A DNA stretch of 64,000 nucleotides from Candidatus Kerfeldbacteria bacterium RIFCSPLOWO2_02_FULL_42_19 (GTDB taxonomy: Bacteria; Patescibacteriota; Patescibacteriia; HO2-48-17), in NCBI GenBank assembly GCA_001818315.1, contig MHKF01000018.1:64325-128324 (forward strand), given 5' to 3'. The notes beneath the pieces were generated by a model that did not search any database, was not told the origin of the DNA, and saw nothing but the letters and a program-made list of their open reading frames with translations. Both the position numbers and the translations under genes were made by a program. Positions 57,612 through 64,000 of the stretch are shown here, piece by piece. The first letter of the stretch is position 1; every line of letters begins with the position of its first letter.

Positions 57612-58059
57612 TATTTCTATCTTAAAAAGACCCTTGTTTCGGGTCAAATCAATCATTATTTATACTCTATCGTATTTTACTCATCCGCGCAAGTGCAAAA
57701 ATTTTTCTTCACACAGTCTAGACTTCATGCGTTGTATGAAGGGACTGTTGCCGAATACACTTTTGCCTGCAAAAATTACAGTGGACTTTTTACATGTTTC
57801 AATGCCGGATTGCTCACATGCGTATAGCGTTGCGTTGTCTTGATGTTGTTGTGTCCGAGCAACTCCTGGATATAACGAATATCTACCCCGTTTTCGAGGA
57901 GATGAGTCGCAAAGCTGTGCCGGAGTGAATGGAACGATGCTTGTTTTCGAATACCCGCACGCTTCAGCGCCTGATAAAATACTGCCTGAGCCGTACGAGA
58001 CGAAAGAGATCCACCGCGTTGACTTCTAAAGAGAAGATCGCGTGAGGTTGCAAAAGATT

Positions 58060-59080
58060 AGACCTGTTGCGTATTAAATATGGTATCATAAAGACAGAGT
58101 AGAAATTAAAACAACATAAAATATGAATCTTTCTAGAATTTTTCAGAATCCTCGGCAGTTAAAAGCATTAACCGGAGCATCGAAAGAAGAGTTCGATGAT
58201 CTGCTTCCAGTATTTGAGTCTTGCCTCAAGAGATTAAAGAAAGATCACAGTACTGCACAGAAAAGAAGGTTTGGTGGCGGTCCCAAAGGCAAACTTCCTA
58301 CGGTTGAACTCAAATTATTTTTCATCCTTATGTATGTCAAAGTATATCCCACCTTTGATGTTTTAGGTTTCCTCGTAGATTTTGATCGCTCAAGAGCCTG
58401 CAGGAACACTCATTTCCTCTTCACGGCACTGGAAAAATCCTTAGGGAGAAAGATTGTCTTACCCGAACGAAAAATTCGCTCAGTAGAGGCACTCTTTCAA
58501 AAGTTTCCTGATCTTAAGGATGTATTCGTTGATGGGCTGGAACGACCAGTCCAGCGACCAAAAAAGCAAAAACAACAACGAAAACTCTATTCGGGTAAAA
58601 AGAAAACCCACACCAAGAAGAGTGTGGTGGTGGTCGATGAAAAGAGACGCATCTTGTTGCTCACAAAAACCAAGTCAGGCAGGAGGCATGACAAGCGTTT
58701 GGCTGACAAACAAGCCTTGTTTGAATGGATTCCGGAATCGATTACCGTCTGGGTGGATACGGGTTTTCAAGGGATACGCAAACAACATACCAATACGATG
58801 ATCCCCAAGAAAGCAACCAAGGGACACCCCTTAACCTACCAAGAAAAACAAGAGAACAAAACAATTTCTGGTTTACGTGTGGTGGTAGAGCATGCTATTG
58901 GAGGTATAAGACGGTTCAGAAGCATTGCTGATATCTATCGGAATAGAAAAGCTTTTATGGAAGACAGATTTCTCAGAGTCGCCGCTGGACTCTGGAACTT
59001 ACATCTGAATCATACAACATAATCTCACAGGGAATGTGGAAATATATTGTTTGATTCTGATATTAATACGCAACAGGTCT
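58060..59080 (+). mobile_element. IS element (IS4/IS5-superfamily-like, single DDE transposase), ~1.02 kb, 18-bp perfect terminal inverted repeats, 3-bp ATT target duplication
   Basis: IRL AGACCTGTTGCGTATTAA (58060-58077) and IRR TTAATACGCAACAGGTCT (59063-59080) are exact reverse complements; flanked by ATT on both sides. Confidence 0.85.
58123..59022 (+). CDS. DDE transposase of the IS element
   Basis: YSGKKKTHTKKSVVVVDE...VDTGFQG...VEHAIGGIRRFRSIADIYRN pattern typical of IS5-family/Harbinger-like DDE transposases. Confidence 0.75.
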   Translation: MNLSRIFQNPRQLKALTGASKEEFDDLLPVFESCLKRLKKDHSTAQKRRFGGGPKGKLPTVELKLFFILMYVKVYPTFDVLGFLVDFDRSRACRNTHFLFTALEKSLGRKIVLPERKIRSVEALFQKFPDLKDVFVDGLERPVQRPKKQKQQRKLYSGKKKTHTKKSVVVVDEKRRILLLTKTKSGRRHDKRLADKQALFEWIPESITVWVDTGFQGIRKQHTNTMIPKKATKGHPLTYQEKQENKTISGLRVVVEHAIGGIRRFRSIADIYRNRKAFMEDRFLRVAAGLWNLHLNHTT

Positions 59081-59642
59081 ATTGAGAAGTGATGAGAGTA
59101 CGAAGATCTTGTATAAAATTTTTAGAGATGACTGTGAGTCGATCTTTGTTTCCTTTTCCATTACGAATGAATAGGAGAAGATTGTTCAGATCAATATCGC
59201 TCATACGAAGGCGGACTACCTCGCTTACGCGCAAACCCGAACCATATGTGAGCGCCAGTAATACTCGGTGTTTCAGATTGGCAGTACAAGCAATCATACG
59301 TCGAATTTCATCGCGTGTGAGAATAACGGGTAGTTTCCATGCACGTTTAGGATAATGAATATGAGTAAGCGGCGGGAGGTGATACAAATTGATTCGCGCG
59401 AAATTGATGGCGTGAATGTAAAGAGCGATGGTTTGACTCGAACGTCCTTTCTGGAGTTGATCTTGGATAAAGAATTTCATTTCATCCTCACCGATTTTGT
59501 TTATGCGCATTCGAAAGAATGTGTAGAGATTCCACAATGCACGGCTATAAGCGCTATAGGTTCGATAACTGTAATTTCGAACTTGTATTTCGCGTTTGAG
59601 TATTTCTAATAAACTTGGCATAATAAAAATGGGTGAATCCAC

Positions 59643-59736
59643 AAAGGTAGCAATCGAGAGGATTACCCATCAATACAGATATCATACCCCTTTCGCCCAC
59701 ATTCCGCAATTTTATGCGTATAAGCACTAGTTAGGC
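59643..59736 (+). other. Putative attI region with GTTAGGC core site (59730-59736)
   Basis: Canonical integron core 7-mer GTTAGGC lies 31 nt upstream of the first cassette ORF and ~90 nt from the divergent recombinase start. Its reverse complement GCCTAAC is the first 7-mer of the attC-like site after cassette 1. Confidence 0.6.
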
Positions 59737-59767
59737 GAAATGCGACTTAACAATTAAGCGTTTAAGT

Positions 59768-60196
59768 ATGAAAAATTTTTCATTTTCCGTAGACAAAGAT
59801 GTGGTGTCTGCCAAAGAAGCTATTAAGCTCTATCTCGCGCTGAAATGGGGCAATGAATCAAAGTACGATGAAAACAAAATGAAACAAGCTTTAGAAAGTA
59901 CAACGATGGTAATATCAGCTCGAGATAGAGCTGGAAAACTCGTCGGTTTGACGAGAGTATTGAGCGATGGCGTGATTCATACATCAGTGGCAGATATTGC
60001 CGTTCATCCTGAATATCAAGGTCAAGGTATTGGTACGCAGATGATGGAGTTAGTGAAAAAACAGTATGGCCACACCGGCATATTTGTCGATGCCTTTAAG
60101 GAAAATGAAAAATTTTTCATGGAGTGTGGATACAAAAAGAGAGATATGATAGTGCTTTCGAAGCTTTTTGTTAAAGAACCGTCGCACATCGCCTAA
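59768..60196 (+). CDS. Cassette 1: GNAT family N-acetyltransferase
   Basis: Acetyl-CoA binding motif QGQGIGTQMM; stop codon TAA lies inside the GCCTAAC inverse core. Confidence 0.8.
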   Translation: MKNFSFSVDKDVVSAKEAIKLYLALKWGNESKYDENKMKQALESTTMVISARDRAGKLVGLTRVLSDGVIHTSVADIAVHPEYQGQGIGTQMMELVKKQYGHTGIFVDAFKENEKFFMECGYKKRDMIVLSKLFVKEPSHIA

Positions 60197-60322
60197 CACG
60201 CAGTATGCGGCTACAGTTTGCTCCGTTTCACTCCGAAAACTTCCGCCCATATTCACTGGTTGTACCGTACTTCGTGCGATATTATACAGCCAGTGAACAT
60301 CGCATACTGCGGAACGTTGTGC
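60191..60322 (+). other. attC-like site 1 (132 bp imperfect palindrome, GCCTAAC ... GTTGTGC)
   Basis: Outer IR cgcagtatgcg/cgcatactgcg, inner IR tattcactggttgta/tacagccagtgaaca; ~85% identical to site 5. Confidence 0.7.
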
Positions 60323-60351
60323 GAAATAATTCGCCTTAGTATACTGCCAAC

Positions 60352-60744
60352 ATGAACACTAACCGTAAAAATATATCGTCAGGTTCTCCAATGGAAAAGC
60401 CAATCGGCTTCTCGCGTGCCGTTAAAATCGGAAACATGATTTCTGTATCAGGCACAGCTGCCATTGCGCCAGACGGAAGCACTGCCCATCCAGATAGCGT
60501 TTATGAACAGACAAAATACTGTATCGAAATCATGAAAAAAGCTATCGAAGAAGCAGGCGGCACGCTCGAAAATGTCATACGCACGCGGATCATGCTCACC
60601 GACATTTCAAAATGGGAAGAAGCTGCAAAAGCTCACGGTGAATACTTCACAGATATTCGTCCCGCGTGCACCTTTGTCGAAGTCAGTGGCTTCATTAAAA
60701 AAGATTGGCTAGTAGAAACCGAAGCCGATTGTCTTCTTGATTGA
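60352..60744 (+). CDS. Cassette 2: RidA/YjgF/L-PSP family protein
   Basis: ~130 aa chorismate-mutase-like fold, ..VSGTAAIAPDG.... and C-terminal ..VEVSGFI.. typical of RidA. Confidence 0.7.
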   Translation: MNTNRKNISSGSPMEKPIGFSRAVKIGNMISVSGTAAIAPDGSTAHPDSVYEQTKYCIEIMKKAIEEAGGTLENVIRTRIMLTDISKWEEAAKAHGEYFTDIRPACTFVEVSGFIKKDWLVETEADCLLD

Positions 60745-60761
60745 AGACGGCGAATTACATC

Positions 60762-60896
60762 ACACAACAGCGTATAGCCAGTTCGGCACTTTATTATGGC
60801 TGGCTTTCAGCACAGCCAAAAGTGCCTCTCCCATATTTGCTGGTGATTGCACATATTATATCACCAGCAAACATCGGCTATACGCGAACGTTGTAC
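60762..60896 (+). other. attC-like site 2 (ACACAAC ... GTTGTAC)
   Basis: IRs cgtatagcc/ggctatacg and tttgctggtgat/atcaccagcaaa; inverse core matches the GTTGTGC boundary at 6/7. Confidence 0.65.
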
Positions 60897-60939
60897 GCTG
60901 TGCCGCGCTTTTGATAAACTCAATGTGAATCGTTAAAGT

Positions 60940-61332
60940 ATGGATATGAGCAGCTCAAAACTTTCACTTAAGGTGTTGCCGATGAAGGTCGGTATCTGTC
61001 GTCTGGAAAAGGAAGCGAGGATTCCTGATTGGGCAATAGTGGGTGGATTCTTTTCTGTTACGCGCACCGATGATGAATTGTCGGTAGTGTGTATGGAGGA
61101 AAATATACCGGAAGATGTAAAGTGTGAAAAAGGATGGCGCGTGTTTAAGGTGGAGGGAATACTTGATTTCTCATTGACCGGAATCCTCGCTTCCATAGCC
61201 AATCCATTAGCTCAAGCTAAAATCAGTATTTTTGCTGTTTCCACATTTGATACCGACTATATTCTCGTGAAAGAAGATACTCTTGAAGAAGCCGTGAAAG
61301 TTTTGAGCATCGAATTCAGTGTGTTGAAGTAA
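60940..61332 (+). CDS. Cassette 3: ACT-domain-like small protein
   Basis: 130 aa; beta-alpha-beta-beta-alpha-beta style pattern with two ~60-aa halves (..VGICRLEKEA.. / ..ISIFAVSTFDTDYILVKE..) resembling ACT regulatory domains; low certainty. Confidence 0.45.
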   Translation: MDMSSSKLSLKVLPMKVGICRLEKEARIPDWAIVGGFFSVTRTDDELSVVCMEENIPEDVKCEKGWRVFKVEGILDFSLTGILASIANPLAQAKISIFAVSTFDTDYILVKEDTLEEAVKVLSIEFSVLK

Positions 61333-61354
61333 AAAAAGAGAAGCGCGGCACAGC

Positions 61355-61532
61355 GTACAACAGCGCGCATCCGAGAGATTTTGCTACAATAATGCTGTAT
61401 CCTTTGAAAAAAGCAGAGCCAAGATACAAGCTGGTCGCTTTTATCCAAATGGCGTTTTCGCGCTTTGCTTCGGCTCCGCCGATATTTTAGCAAAGCGCTC
61501 AACGCCACTTCGGATGCGCGCAAACGTTATAC
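61355..61532 (+). other. attC-like site 3 (GTACAAC ... GTTATAC), 178 bp
   Basis: Inverse core is the exact reverse complement of the cassette-3 5' boundary GTTGTAC; IRs gcgcgcatccgag/cttcggatgcgcgc and gcgctttgc/gcaaagcgc. Confidence 0.65.
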
Positions 61533-61646
61533 GCAATTCAAAAAATATTTTTTTAACGAAGAATACTGAATGATAGGCTTTCAAAAGGAAATAAATTTGA
61601 TTTTTAAAACACAATAATTATAAACTTTATCTAATATTTAATAGAC

Positions 61647-62297
61647 ATGCAGATTAAAAAGCTTTTAAGACAATTTGATGAATTACATCATATCCATGGA
61701 GATAAAAATTTGGACTCGATTTATGGTGCAGGACAAATTCATAATCCTAAAGTGTGCTTAGTATTTATGAACCCCACTGGTAGAAATGTAGCGTCAGATA
61801 AAAAATGGCGTGGCTTAAAAGCGCCTTGGATAGGCACAAAAAATGTATGGAAAATGTTTTTTCAACTTGGTTTTTTCGAAGAAAGTTTTTTCAACGAAAT
61901 TAATGCAAAAAAACCAAGCGATTGGGATTATGAATTTGCAGGCAAAGTTTATACAAAAGTGAGTGATAATTCTATATACATAACTAATTTATCAAAGGCA
62001 ACACAGATAGATGCAAGACCTCTTAGAGATGATGTTTTTAGAGAGTATCTAGGTTTATTTGAAGAAGAAATAAATATTCTTAATCCACAAATTATCATAA
62101 CTTTTGGAAATCAAGTAAGCTCAATTTTACTGGGTAAAAATATCAAGGTTTCAGATTATAGAAAGAAGCATGAAAATATTAAAGTTAATGGAAATGCTTT
62201 TAAGGTTTTTCCTGTATACTACCCAGTTGGACAAGGCATGAGAAATATAAAAAAAGCAAAGGAAGATATTGCTTGGATTATCAAAAATCAAATTTAA
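61647..62297 (+). CDS. Cassette 4: uracil-DNA glycosylase superfamily-like protein (AT-rich cassette)
   Basis: ..VCLVFMNPTG.. in the position of the UDG GEAPG motif, ..IYITNLSKA.. and ..IIITFGNQVS.. resemble UDG family 4/5 motifs B. Markedly lower GC than neighbours. Confidence 0.45.
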   Translation: MQIKKLLRQFDELHHIHGDKNLDSIYGAGQIHNPKVCLVFMNPTGRNVASDKKWRGLKAPWIGTKNVWKMFFQLGFFEESFFNEINAKKPSDWDYEFAGKVYTKVSDNSIYITNLSKATQIDARPLRDDVFREYLGLFEEEINILNPQIIITFGNQVSSILLGKNIKVSDYRKKHENIKVNGNAFKVFPVYYPVGQGMRNIKKAKEDIAWIIKNQI

Positions 62298-62406
62298 AAT
62301 TAACGAAGAAAGCCTATTATAATGAGTAAGAACGAAAAATATTTTTTGAACTCACTTCGCTACGCTTCGTGCCACGCTGCGCTCTCCTCCCTGTGGTCGT
62401 CGGGGC

Positions 62407-62506
62407 GTATAACAAGGGATATACGGTTCAGCCCTCGGCTCGGGCTTCACCCAAATTTTTCTTCCGCTACGCTACATAAAAACTTCGTATATCCCTGACG
62501 TTATAT
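62407..62506 (+). other. attC-like site 4 (GTATAAC ... GTTATAT), ~100 bp
   Basis: Inverse core is exact reverse complement of cassette-4 boundary GTTATAC; IR gggatatacg/cgtatatccc. Confidence 0.65.
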
Positions 62507-62533
62507 GAAATACATTTTTAGAGCTATTTGAAA

Positions 62534-63301
62534 ATGCAAAAAGTTACCAAAGCAATAATCACATTAATACTTTCATACATTCTACTCAGCTTGTATGCTT
62601 TTGGCGTTTTTTTACAACAGCCACTCATAAAAGGAGAATCACTTACTATCCAAGCAACACTTGAGCCTTTTGCGTATGTATTGCTTATGGTCATTGGTAA
62701 CTTTTTGATTTTCAAAGCAGTATATTCTCAAAAAAGATCAAAGAACCGTTTCTTCGATGAGAGAAAACTTTTAGCACCGACAATAATTTTTCTTTTATTG
62801 TTGAGTTTCGGTGCAGGAATCCATACAGCAGGGCAGCTCATCGAAGAAACTTTCGTAAATACAAATGCCAACATTCAACATTTTACAGATAATTTTACAT
62901 CACAAGTAGCATACTTTTTTGAGGAATATCCTGCTCATTTTTTAATTGCTTTGCCTTATCTTATACTTTTGTATTTTGTGGCAAAACTAGAATTGAACAG
63001 ACCACCTATTCATCTTAAAAATATCGAAAAAGGCATTATTGTAATGTCAGCAATACTTTATGGAATCATTTTTGCAGTATTAAATGCGGAAGGGCAGGTA
63101 ACAATATTCGCAATTATTATCGCTGGATATTTGATTTATTCAATTTACAGATCAAAACAACAAATAAAGCGGGAACTGATAGATATGCCTTTTTCGACTT
63201 ACTTTGTAATCGGAAATGCGGTGATGATTTTATTAAATGTATTATTTGGAATAATGTATGGGTGGTCTGTTCAGCCAACTGAATTAGGTTTTGGCTCATA
63301 A
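62534..63301 (+). CDS. Cassette 5: polytopic membrane protein of unknown function
   Basis: ~6-7 predicted TM helices; track start TTG 62528, ATG at 62534. Confidence 0.5.
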   Translation: MQKVTKAIITLILSYILLSLYAFGVFLQQPLIKGESLTIQATLEPFAYVLLMVIGNFLIFKAVYSQKRSKNRFFDERKLLAPTIIFLLLLSFGAGIHTAGQLIEETFVNTNANIQHFTDNFTSQVAYFFEEYPAHFLIALPYLILLYFVAKLELNRPPIHLKNIEKGIIVMSAILYGIIFAVLNAEGQVTIFAIIIAGYLIYSIYRSKQQIKRELIDMPFSTYFVIGNAVMILLNVLFGIMYGWSVQPTELGFGS

Positions 63302-63337
63302 ACGCAACTAAAAAATAATAGCTCTAAAAATTACATC

Positions 63338-63459
63338 ATATAACACTGCGTATGCGGCTACGGCTTGCTACGGAAGCCTTCGCCCATATTCACTGGCAGT
63401 AACGCGCTTCGCGCGATATTATACTGCCAGTGAATATCGCATACTGCGGAACGTTAGAT
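63338..63459 (+). other. attC-like site 5 (ATATAAC ... GTTAGAT), 122 bp
   Basis: Exact reverse-complement relationship to cassette-5 boundary GTTATAT; near-identical to site 1 (shared gtatgcggctac...cccatattcactgg...gcgatattatac.gccagtgaa.atcgcatactgcggaacgtt). Confidence 0.7.
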
Positions 63460-63475
63460 GTAATTTGTCCTGCCT

Positions 63476-63910
63476 ATGTTCCAAAAAATAATATCACCAA
63501 TAATATATGCACTTTTTATCATTCCGGGATTAATCGCTGGAATGGCGAATGTGATCTTTTTTGATACGCGTGATGATGATTTAGAATTAATCGTTGGTAA
63601 CCTACTAGCTGGTATGATAATTTTGATCTTGATAATAACATCGATAGCTGTAGTGATGACCATTGGAAACATAGTGATCTATAAAATAGAAAGGCTCAAA
63701 AAACCCACAAAAAAAGATCACATTCGCCAAAGTCTAATATTTTATCTAGTTCTTGTTCTTGGAATATTGGTTACGATTACTGCCGAAAATACCAACGGCT
63801 TAGGATTTACCTATCTCTACATAATAATGATGGCCGCAACTATTGCAATCGTAACCAACATAATCTATCTCGTTTACAAAAATTATCACGGCAGGACAAA
63901 CTACATCTAA
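63476..63910 (+). CDS. Cassette 6: small 4-TM membrane protein of unknown function
   Basis: 144 aa, four hydrophobic helices; stop codon inside ATCTAAC inverse core. Confidence 0.5.
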   Translation: MFQKIISPIIYALFIIPGLIAGMANVIFFDTRDDDLELIVGNLLAGMIILILIITSIAVVMTIGNIVIYKIERLKKPTKKDHIRQSLIFYLVLVLGILVTITAENTNGLGFTYLYIIMMAATIAIVTNIIYLVYKNYHGRTNYI

Positions 63911-64000
63911 CAGCGCCTATCGGGGGTTGTTGCCTACTTTCAGGCTTGGTACTATGGAAAAAGCCTCTGACTGTTTTCAGAGCTTTTCTCTGAAAACAAA
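63905..64000 (+). other. attC-like site 6, partial (starts ATCTAAC; runs off window)
   Basis: ATCTAAC is the exact reverse complement of the cassette-6 boundary GTTAGAT; downstream IRs tcagag/ctctga visible before window end. Confidence 0.55.

Follow-up and report, generated by a model that had tools for sequence, protein, structure and literature searches.

At the array-bearing end of the 64-kb stretch of Candidatus Kerfeldbacteria DNA analysed here (the whole of which we call the window), a minus-strand gene for a tyrosine recombinase, at 57776-59642, is split in two by an insertion sequence (IS). An attI-like site follows, and then an array of gene cassettes that diverges from the recombinase gene, with at least six cassettes in the window and at least nine on the full contig; this is the geometry of an integron. 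What sets the locus apart is the recombinase itself, which is of Xer length and lacks the additional domain (I2) of the integron integrases (IntI), and we argue below that gene, site and array probably make up an integron of a new type.

Taking out the IS, together with one copy of the ATT that flanks it, restores a single uninterrupted open reading frame (ORF), whose stop codon lies at 57776-57778. Read from the GTG at 59642 it encodes 280 amino acids, the approximate length given by the initial annotation; from the ATG at 59621, where the family profile match begins, the product has 273. Residues 1-180 comprise an N-terminal SAM-like DNA-binding domain, box I with R131 and a β-hairpin with K156. 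The catalytic set is complete (R131, K156, H223, R226, H249 and Y258) and invariant in the family, and the protein matches PF00589 with E = 9.9e-47. As for the IS, it ends in perfect terminal inverted repeats of 18-19 nt, occurs once in the window and carries a plus-strand transposase ORF (58123-59022, 299 amino acids; profiles PF13359 DDE_Tnp_4 and PF13613). It scores 75 bits against a curated IS5 cut-off of 140, and may belong to an undescribed IS5-like group. A 2-bp ‘TA’ target duplication was ruled out, as an in-frame TAA would remain, whereas ATT gives an open frame.

From the Arg of box I (R131) to the His of the HxxR motif (H223) we count 92 residues, against the ~94 estimated in the initial annotation, which had on this basis matched the recombinase with XerC/XerD. 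The corresponding distance is 92 in XerC and 96 in XerD, and about 132 in VchIntIA. Comparison with the Protein Data Bank by phmmer agrees: VchIntIA (2a3v) aligns in two pieces (query 9-192 with 10-196, query 196-273 with 240-317), leaving some 43 of its residues (197-239) without a counterpart in the window protein, whilst the Xer structures 4a8e, 5hxy and 1a0p (XerA, XerD) align in one piece. With the integron-integrase profile TIGR02249 the window protein reaches 197 bits, in two stretches, and so fails the cut-off of 265; its relatives score 209-228 bits, and four bona fide IntI, rescored from a set of ten TIGR02249-type IntI drawn from six phyla, score 420-488 bits in one stretch. In a MAFFT alignment a segment of ~45 amino acids (..LPxALxRKYPxAxxxWxWQYVFPA...RRHH) is present in all ten of these IntI and absent from the window protein, from 19 relatives and from the Xer proteins. 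An AlphaFold model (predicted local distance difference test, pLDDT, 87) has the Xer-like order of elements, with no extra helix between the β-hairpin and the HxxR helix; in Foldseek searches it ranks XerA (5hxy) first, with VchIntIA (2a3v) also at the top, the latter alignment spanning 312 columns for 273 residues. Judged by the tests that define IntI, the window protein is not one, and the claim that it is of Xer length and lacks the IntI segment stands.

Since the IS sits exactly in the interval between boxes I and II, after residue 180, it might be supposed that the missing segment was deleted at the insertion, or that the gene has been wrongly reconstructed. We regard this as extremely improbable. 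The joined frame is open and the 3-bp target duplication has survived whole; at the junction the window protein is three residues longer than its relatives, with no gap in the family alignment; and more than 100 uninterrupted homologues of 257-286 amino acids have the same architecture. An intact duplication and a gapless junction mean that the insertion took nothing out of the recombinase gene. The integrase in this genome is, through that insertion, a pseudogene, for which reason the array is probably frozen. The gene is disrupted on all 17 contigs, from several samples, that were fetched by way of the truncated product (a look-up that is partly circular), and the protein database holds no intact allele, the next match being 55-56% identical.

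A neighbour-joining tree built from 270 columns with 100 bootstraps groups the ten IntI in a clade of 100% support, outside which fall all 20 CPR sequences (from the Candidate Phyla Radiation, or Patescibacteria, the ultra-small bacteria to which Candidatus Kerfeldbacteria belongs), a result that fits the earlier suggestion of a distinct lineage. One could still derive the family from canonical IntI by secondary loss of I2, the arrays being relics of an I2-bearing ancestor: it shares with IntI a ..SPL C-terminus, the PF13495 domain and the partial integron-integrase match of 197-228 bits. However, the segment is missing from 20 of the 20 members sampled, all of them outside the IntI clade; a ..SPL(D/E) tail is frequent in other I2-less recombinases of the superfamily; and the catalytic residues and the attI motif are kept across several CPR phyla, which points to a function still maintained. 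We therefore hold such a derivation, with relic arrays, to be very unlikely. Most likely, the CPR recombinase family never had I2, or lost it long ago, and the lineage could either preserve the ancestral condition of integrons, before I2, or have arisen from Xer as a separate invention.

Turning to the array, a site of 100-180 nt that folds as a hairpin stands after each ORF, six such sites lying in the window and eight on the contig, with 91% paired cells across the aligned attC sites. In the alignment of the eight, the L-box helix is 93% paired and nine of its 11 pairs have changed on both sides. The top strand reads ACATC-RYYYAAC-A-[11-nt L'']...[11-nt L']-R-AAC-GTTRNNY-GAAAT, a layout that sets the R and L boxes apart by a 1 x 4-nt asymmetric loop, and the arms are kept in sequence (ACATC-RYYYAAC, ACWTCG-N-ATA and GTTRNNY-GAAAT). 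A strict RYYYAAC/GTTRRRY pattern overlooked most cassette ends, and was relaxed to GTT/AAC plus extension. The first 9-21 nt (GTT...) of the cassettes are a perfect or near-perfect reverse complement of the start (...AAC) of their own attC, most strikingly in cassette 3, whose initial 21 nt are perfectly complementary; the relation holds in all six window cassettes, with exact runs of 6 to at least 20 nt. We read this as the footprint of circular cassettes opened at GTT. The array is real and follows classical boundary logic, and the initial annotation was right to place a cassette array with classical core-site logic beside the recombinase.

Table 1. Features of the recombinase-attI-cassette locus (window coordinates)
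Feature	Position	Strand	Remarks
Recombinase, 5' part	59081-59621	-	Residues 1-180; stops at the IS; annotated as the 180-aa product P0001
Recombinase, 3' part	57776-58059	-	Residues 181-273 (H223-x-x-R226, H249, Y258, C-terminal ..KSPL) plus stop codon
IS5-family-like IS	58060-59080		1,021 bp; splits the recombinase after codon 180
3-bp target-site duplication ATT	58057-58059 and 59081-59083		Direct repeat either side of the IS
attI-like core site	59713-59741	+	Arms TATGCGTATAA (left) and TTAGGCGAAAT (right) around the 7-nt centre GCACTAG
Cassette 1	59731-60316	+	GNAT acetyltransferase ORF 59768-60196; attC1 60191-60322 (R'' GCCTAAC, R' GTTGTGC)
Cassette 2	60317-60890	+	RidA/YjgF-like ORF 60352-60744; attC2 60762-60896
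Cassette 3	60891-61526	+	ACT-domain ORF 60940-61332; attC3 61355-61532
Cassette 4	61527-62500	+	Uracil-DNA-glycosylase-family ORF 61647-62297; attC4 62407-62506
Cassette 5	62501-63453	+	Membrane protein ORF 62528-63301; attC5 63338-63459
Cassette 6	63454-64000	+	Membrane protein ORF 63476-63910; attC6 from 63905, past the window end to 64083 in the contig continuation

In the attI-like site a 7-nt centre is flanked by two similar 11-nt arms, inverted relative to each other (about ATTTCGNATAA ... TTRNNCGAAAT), with the cassette junction falling where the centre meets the right arm. In the window G59730 and T59731 flank this first junction, which is 109 bp away from the ATG of the recombinase. 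The consensus nTnCGnATAnAAACnA/GTTnTnnGAAAT (the slash marking the junction) recurs in 13 loci and a further six metagenome loci, about 20 in all, where the motif ends exactly at the first G/TT junction, 75-170 bp from the start codon. The arm sequence also recurs in attC, in R'' (ACATCGNNYAA), as the complement in R' and just inside L' (ACWTCGNATA), with ATA and GTT 9 nt apart in attC, as against 7 nt in attI. Next to homologues from Bacteroidota or Spirochaetota the CPR attI motif was not found. The system thus has every structural attribute of an integron: an array, its boundary logic and attI at the array head.

Relatives of the recombinase number thousands in the database, and the best 120 are almost all 257-286 amino acids long, 47-56% identical and from metagenome-assembled genomes of Patescibacteria; the family has the architecture PF13495 plus PF00589, a C-terminus of ..IKSPL and a length of ~270 amino acids. 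An 8-nt-run scan of the homologue loci did no better than controls, and a covariance model (R1), built from the sites of the window array, was used instead. Within the window R1 matches only at 60183-64000. Among loci that encode ~270-aa homologues, from several CPR phyla and 47-78% identical, it matches 23. Each of the seven further loci with upstream DNA (L007, L008, L015, L031, L091, L092 and L093) has 1-9 sites, and a metagenome scan gave a match in 14 of 18 additional family loci with at least 800 nt upstream. Intact homologues beside similar arrays, of the kind that the initial annotation had pointed to as a check, therefore exist, and lie next to sites of the same type. All of the matches in family loci, about 55, are upstream of the recombinase gene and on the opposite strand, with none downstream or on the gene strand. 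A set of 32 sites from eight genomes has 93% pairing in the L helix, where ten of the 11 pairs show compensatory change. In 12 of 24 consecutive pairs R'(n) agrees with R''(n+1), read as its reverse complement, at each of the four variable positions, as compared with 7% when pairs are random; we take this match between the variable part of R' and the R'' of the next site to be the trace left by crossovers that fall at the invariant GTT or next to it. R1 gave no match near DPANN homologues or ten canonical intI genes, where the presence of arrays was not verified.

One cassette protein is common, at 65% identity, to the window array and that of L092, whose recombinases are about 50% identical. 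Many other homologue contigs end 10-600 bp upstream of the recombinase gene, as expected where arrays vary between strains. The downstream neighbours differ by genome (secE-nusG-rplKA here; rpoBC, dnaG-rpoD or rluD-gmk-rplS elsewhere) and yet are always housekeeping genes, from which we conclude that these are sedentary chromosomal elements.

These loci bear directly on the possibility, raised in the initial annotation, that the recombinase is not the one that built the array. Its adjacency would then be coincidental, the array having been made by a canonical IntI that is encoded at some other place in the genome or acts in trans, whilst the recombinase has some unrelated job. Most of the genome is outside our view, and clusters of attC sites lacking a nearby intI (CALIN) are common; moreover, Cury et al. 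2016 found recombinases without the additional domain (intI_Cterm) near attC sites only sporadically, and concluded that they ‘are not IntI’. Set against this, the same geometry of gene, attI and divergent array is found in 23 loci of different genomes, with every one of the R1 matches on the expected side and strand; about 20 of the loci have the attI motif, conserved and at a fixed distance from the start codon; and no IntI-type gene was found within the sampled flanks of the homologue loci. The window, for its part, contains no second tyrosine recombinase. We consider coincidence highly improbable, and on the strength of the recurring geometry it is most likely that the recombinase is the array's own.

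A further alternative concerns what the enzyme evolved for. On this account the gene is primarily a CPR housekeeping Xer, resolving chromosome dimers, the adjacent site is its dif, and the cassettes are exploiters of Xer, resembling integrative mobile elements exploiting Xer (IMEX), that have piled up there, so that the enzyme did not evolve for cassette capture. The best family for the recombinase is indeed the XerA-type NF040815 (211 bits for the window protein against a cut-off of 220; 230-235, and so above it, for its relatives), although this model is broad, its cut-off being passed also by relatives from Bacteroidota, Spirochaetota and DPANN. The attI-like site, an 11-7-11 arrangement with dyad-like arms, resembles dif and is present in nearly every locus, even those with few cassettes, and the operons downstream of the gene are invariably housekeeping ones. 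In addition, Smyshlyaev et al. 2021 (PMC8138268) described, without genomic context or sites, a ‘Cand’ subgroup of simple tyrosine recombinases as likely substitutes for Xer; these short, Xer-related recombinases of candidate phyla are very probably the same family as ours, and their link to attI and attC arrays is new. On the other side, the IS knock-out on 17 of 17 contigs, with no intact allele in the database, argues that the gene is dispensable here, and arrays of up to nine or more single-gene cassettes with hairpin sites and R'/R'' logic are the behaviour of an integron rather than of any known IMEX. GC skew and gene orientation in the window gave no signal of an origin or terminus; that genes diverge from the locus with no switch in skew is weak evidence in the same direction. 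We judge a primary housekeeping role of this kind to be unlikely; it is, however, compatible with the explanation that we favour and overlaps it, as the enzyme would still be the builder of the array.

Synthesising these observations, we think it likely, on the sequence evidence, that the locus is a sedentary chromosomal integron of a new type, with a Xer-sized, I2-less integrase, in Candidatus Kerfeldbacteria. We propose that this recombinase would insert circular cassettes at attI and excise them at attC, with a folded single strand of attC as its substrate, in the manner of classical integrons or of the integration of CTX phage by XerCD. In place of the extrahelical bases read by I2, the enzyme may read the arm sequence (about A-Y-W-T-C-G-N-A-Y-A-A) in both arms, such that the folded attC and the double-stranded attI could each bring their arms into a dif-like layout of 11 / ~7 / 11, a two-armed core site whose centre, in the folded attC, would carry a 3-4-nt bulge on one strand. 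The asymmetric 1 x 4-nt loop that separates the R box from the L box would probably mark the strand and block a second strand exchange, and the single exchange might then be resolved by replication.

XerCD, which is without I2, recombines the folded single-stranded attP of the CTX phage into dif1 by one strand exchange, and by analogy this integration is the nearest mechanistic precedent for the mechanism that we envisage. In both, the substrate of an I2-less recombinase would be a single strand folded into the likeness of a two-armed core site, imperfect in its central region. CTX-type IMEX differ in that they are phages or plasmids of several kilobases, form no long uniform arrays and depend on two enzymes, XerC and XerD. 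The pdif modules of Acinetobacter plasmids are likewise discrete gene modules with Xer-type sites, thought to be moved by the host Xer; unlike the cassettes here, they have plain double-stranded XerC/XerD sites in alternating orientation, no hairpins and neither a dedicated recombinase nor an attI beside them.

Among Xer/dif systems, the closest are those with a single recombinase (archaeal XerA; XerS/difSL and XerH/difH). The likeness extends to length, two-domain fold and box I-II spacing, to the best profile and the best structural matches (5hxy, 4a8e) and to the 11 / ~7 / 11 site that adjoins the gene, as dif adjoins the recombinase gene in XerS/difSL and XerH/difH; the gene described here, by contrast, can be lost to an IS. 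We know of no Xer/dif system with a hairpin-bounded array of single-gene cassettes at its site. With canonical integrons (IntI1, VchIntIA; TIGR02249) the system shares a recombinase gene divergent from mostly promoterless single-gene cassettes with attI between them, attC sites that form imperfect hairpins from R''/L''/L'/R' boxes, with AAC/GTT invariant and the terminal loop variable, cassettes that begin after the G of GTT, stop codons often placed within R'', and an integrase with a PF13495 N-terminal domain and a ..SPL C-terminus. It departs from them in that the integrase lies outside the IntI clade and is without the I2 domain of ~35-45 amino acids that contacts extrahelical bases, and in that the attC arms are conserved in sequence, with the 1 x 4-nt asymmetric R/L loop and an 11-bp, near-perfect L helix. 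A classical attC has instead an unpaired spacer of 5-6 nt plus an extrahelical base in L''.

Several points weigh against the reading of the locus as a new type of integron. The tree, though it sets IntI apart, recovers the CPR sequences as monophyletic with a bootstrap of only 37% and does not separate the deep nodes. Four of the 18 metagenome loci have no R1 match, three of which keep the attI motif. R1 itself was trained on the sites of one genome, and the alignment of further sites (A3) was fitted to the model. The copy of the recombinase in the window is inactivated, and the single-stranded substrate, the choice of strand and the exact position of cleavage are inferred. Our view covers 64 kb plus about 2.6 kb of flank, and a canonical intI may lie elsewhere. 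The affinity of the family to XerA-type enzymes, and its probable membership of the ‘Cand’ subgroup, make a housekeeping role plausible. Lastly, published experiments (Messier & Roy 2001; MacDonald 2006; Escudero 2020) show that canonical IntI needs the additional domain for attC recombination.

Outside the CPR we searched with R1 and with a pattern of structure only (AAC, a 9-bp perfect L helix, GTT). An Ignavibacteriota contig (L019:7941-15319; CAVSHI010000002.1) encodes a 316-aa homologue without I2, 42% identical to the window protein and scoring 251 bits with TIGR02249, in two stretches and below the cut-off. At least nine hairpin sites of ~120 nt, with AAC/GTT triplets, follow this recombinase on the same strand; R'(n) and R''(n+1) are complementary, i.e. 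the boundary logic is the same, and an attI-like junction, ACAAGA/GTTAGCCGTCAT, comes directly after the recombinase stop codon. The locus looks like an ‘inverted-orientation’ integron with an I2-less recombinase, and suggests that the Xer-type integron extends beyond the CPR. Weaker cases, with attC-like sites (R1 15-37 bits, or structure only) near I2-less homologues, mostly downstream and on the gene strand, were seen in Spirochaetota (L020:10750-15785), Flavobacteriaceae (L021:11209-13576 and L027:9776-15170) and Paludibacter (L038:79-4166), and on two metagenome contigs (L138:3291-3438 and L147:3969-4114). The I2-less homologues of Bacteroidota have an N-terminal extension of ~110 amino acids. 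On balance, we lean, if only somewhat, towards a class of integrons that spans several CPR phyla and at least one phylum outside them, and is run by I2-less, Xer-sized recombinases.

Some further observations concern the cassettes themselves. Several cassette ORFs of the window array stop at a TAA within the R'' core (..YTAAC; for example 60194-60196 and 63907-63909), such that the recombination site shares bases with the coding sequence, as happens in many classical cassettes. A sigma-70-like pair, TTGAGT-17-CATAAT with TG, lies at 59596-59624 on the plus strand, inside the 5' end of the recombinase gene and facing the cassettes, which is the classical location of Pc; a promoter and terminator scan of the array as a whole was not above shuffles. 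Beyond the window, a public contig (Candidatus Kerfeldbacteria, MHKG01000032.1) carries three further cassettes and then a transposase fragment at its end. All of the public contigs break off ~7 kb into the array (L001:1-300, about window coordinate 66300-66580) at a transposase-like ORF with a helix-turn-helix N-terminus, and the distal end of the array may also be disrupted by an IS. The ninth cassette (GTTAGCTGAAAT...) has no recognisable attC ahead of the contig end. In cassette 8 the complement of the cassette start (GGGCTGGTTTCTGA) is ~60 nt away from R'' (ACTTAAC), a gap that the other cassettes do not have, and the L box of attC8 (L001:884-962, about window coordinate 65620-65697) pairs poorly; attC8 may be a hybrid or rearranged site.

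Between arrays, too, there are resemblances. Small SWEET/PQ-loop (MtN3_slv) genes recur as cassettes in three arrays, at differing positions (L008:2381-2641, L092:1-64 and L093:7616-7879), and S-adenosylmethionine (SAM)-methyltransferase genes in five (the window array, L007, L091, L092 and L093), again at different positions. The first cassettes of L099 and L105 open with nearly identical sequence (GTTAGCTRAAATAT.CC.TTTTCTTTTT). The recurring cassette genes hint at a shared CPR cassette pool. One homologue, from Candidatus Gracilibacteria (L018:199-1017), contains an in-frame TGA when translated with table 11, as it should if the lineage reads UGA as glycine (code 25), and the gene was accordingly not called a pseudogene.

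Full-text searches of the literature for cassette arrays or integrons in CPR/Patescibacteria, and for I2-less integron integrases, turned up no description of either, and as far as can be told the finding is unreported. I2 is the textbook hallmark of integron integrases. Archaeal IntIs do have the additional domain (Ghaly et al. 2022), and Escudero et al. 2020 regarded the gain of I2 as the innovation that moved a Xer-like enzyme from double-stranded to single-stranded substrates; the domain is also described as essential for attC recombination (Messier & Roy 2001; MacDonald 2006). If our reading is true, I2 would not be a prerequisite for cassette recombination of the attC type, hairpin sites having found another molecular solution, and the CPR family would offer a living comparator for the origin of integrons from Xer. 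IntegronFinder uses the additional domain (intI_Cterm) as a criterion, and surveys that depend on it would then undercount integrons and file systems such as this one as CALIN orphans. For the CPR bacteria, about whose ways of acquiring genes little is known, it would mean a cassette-exchange platform of their own.

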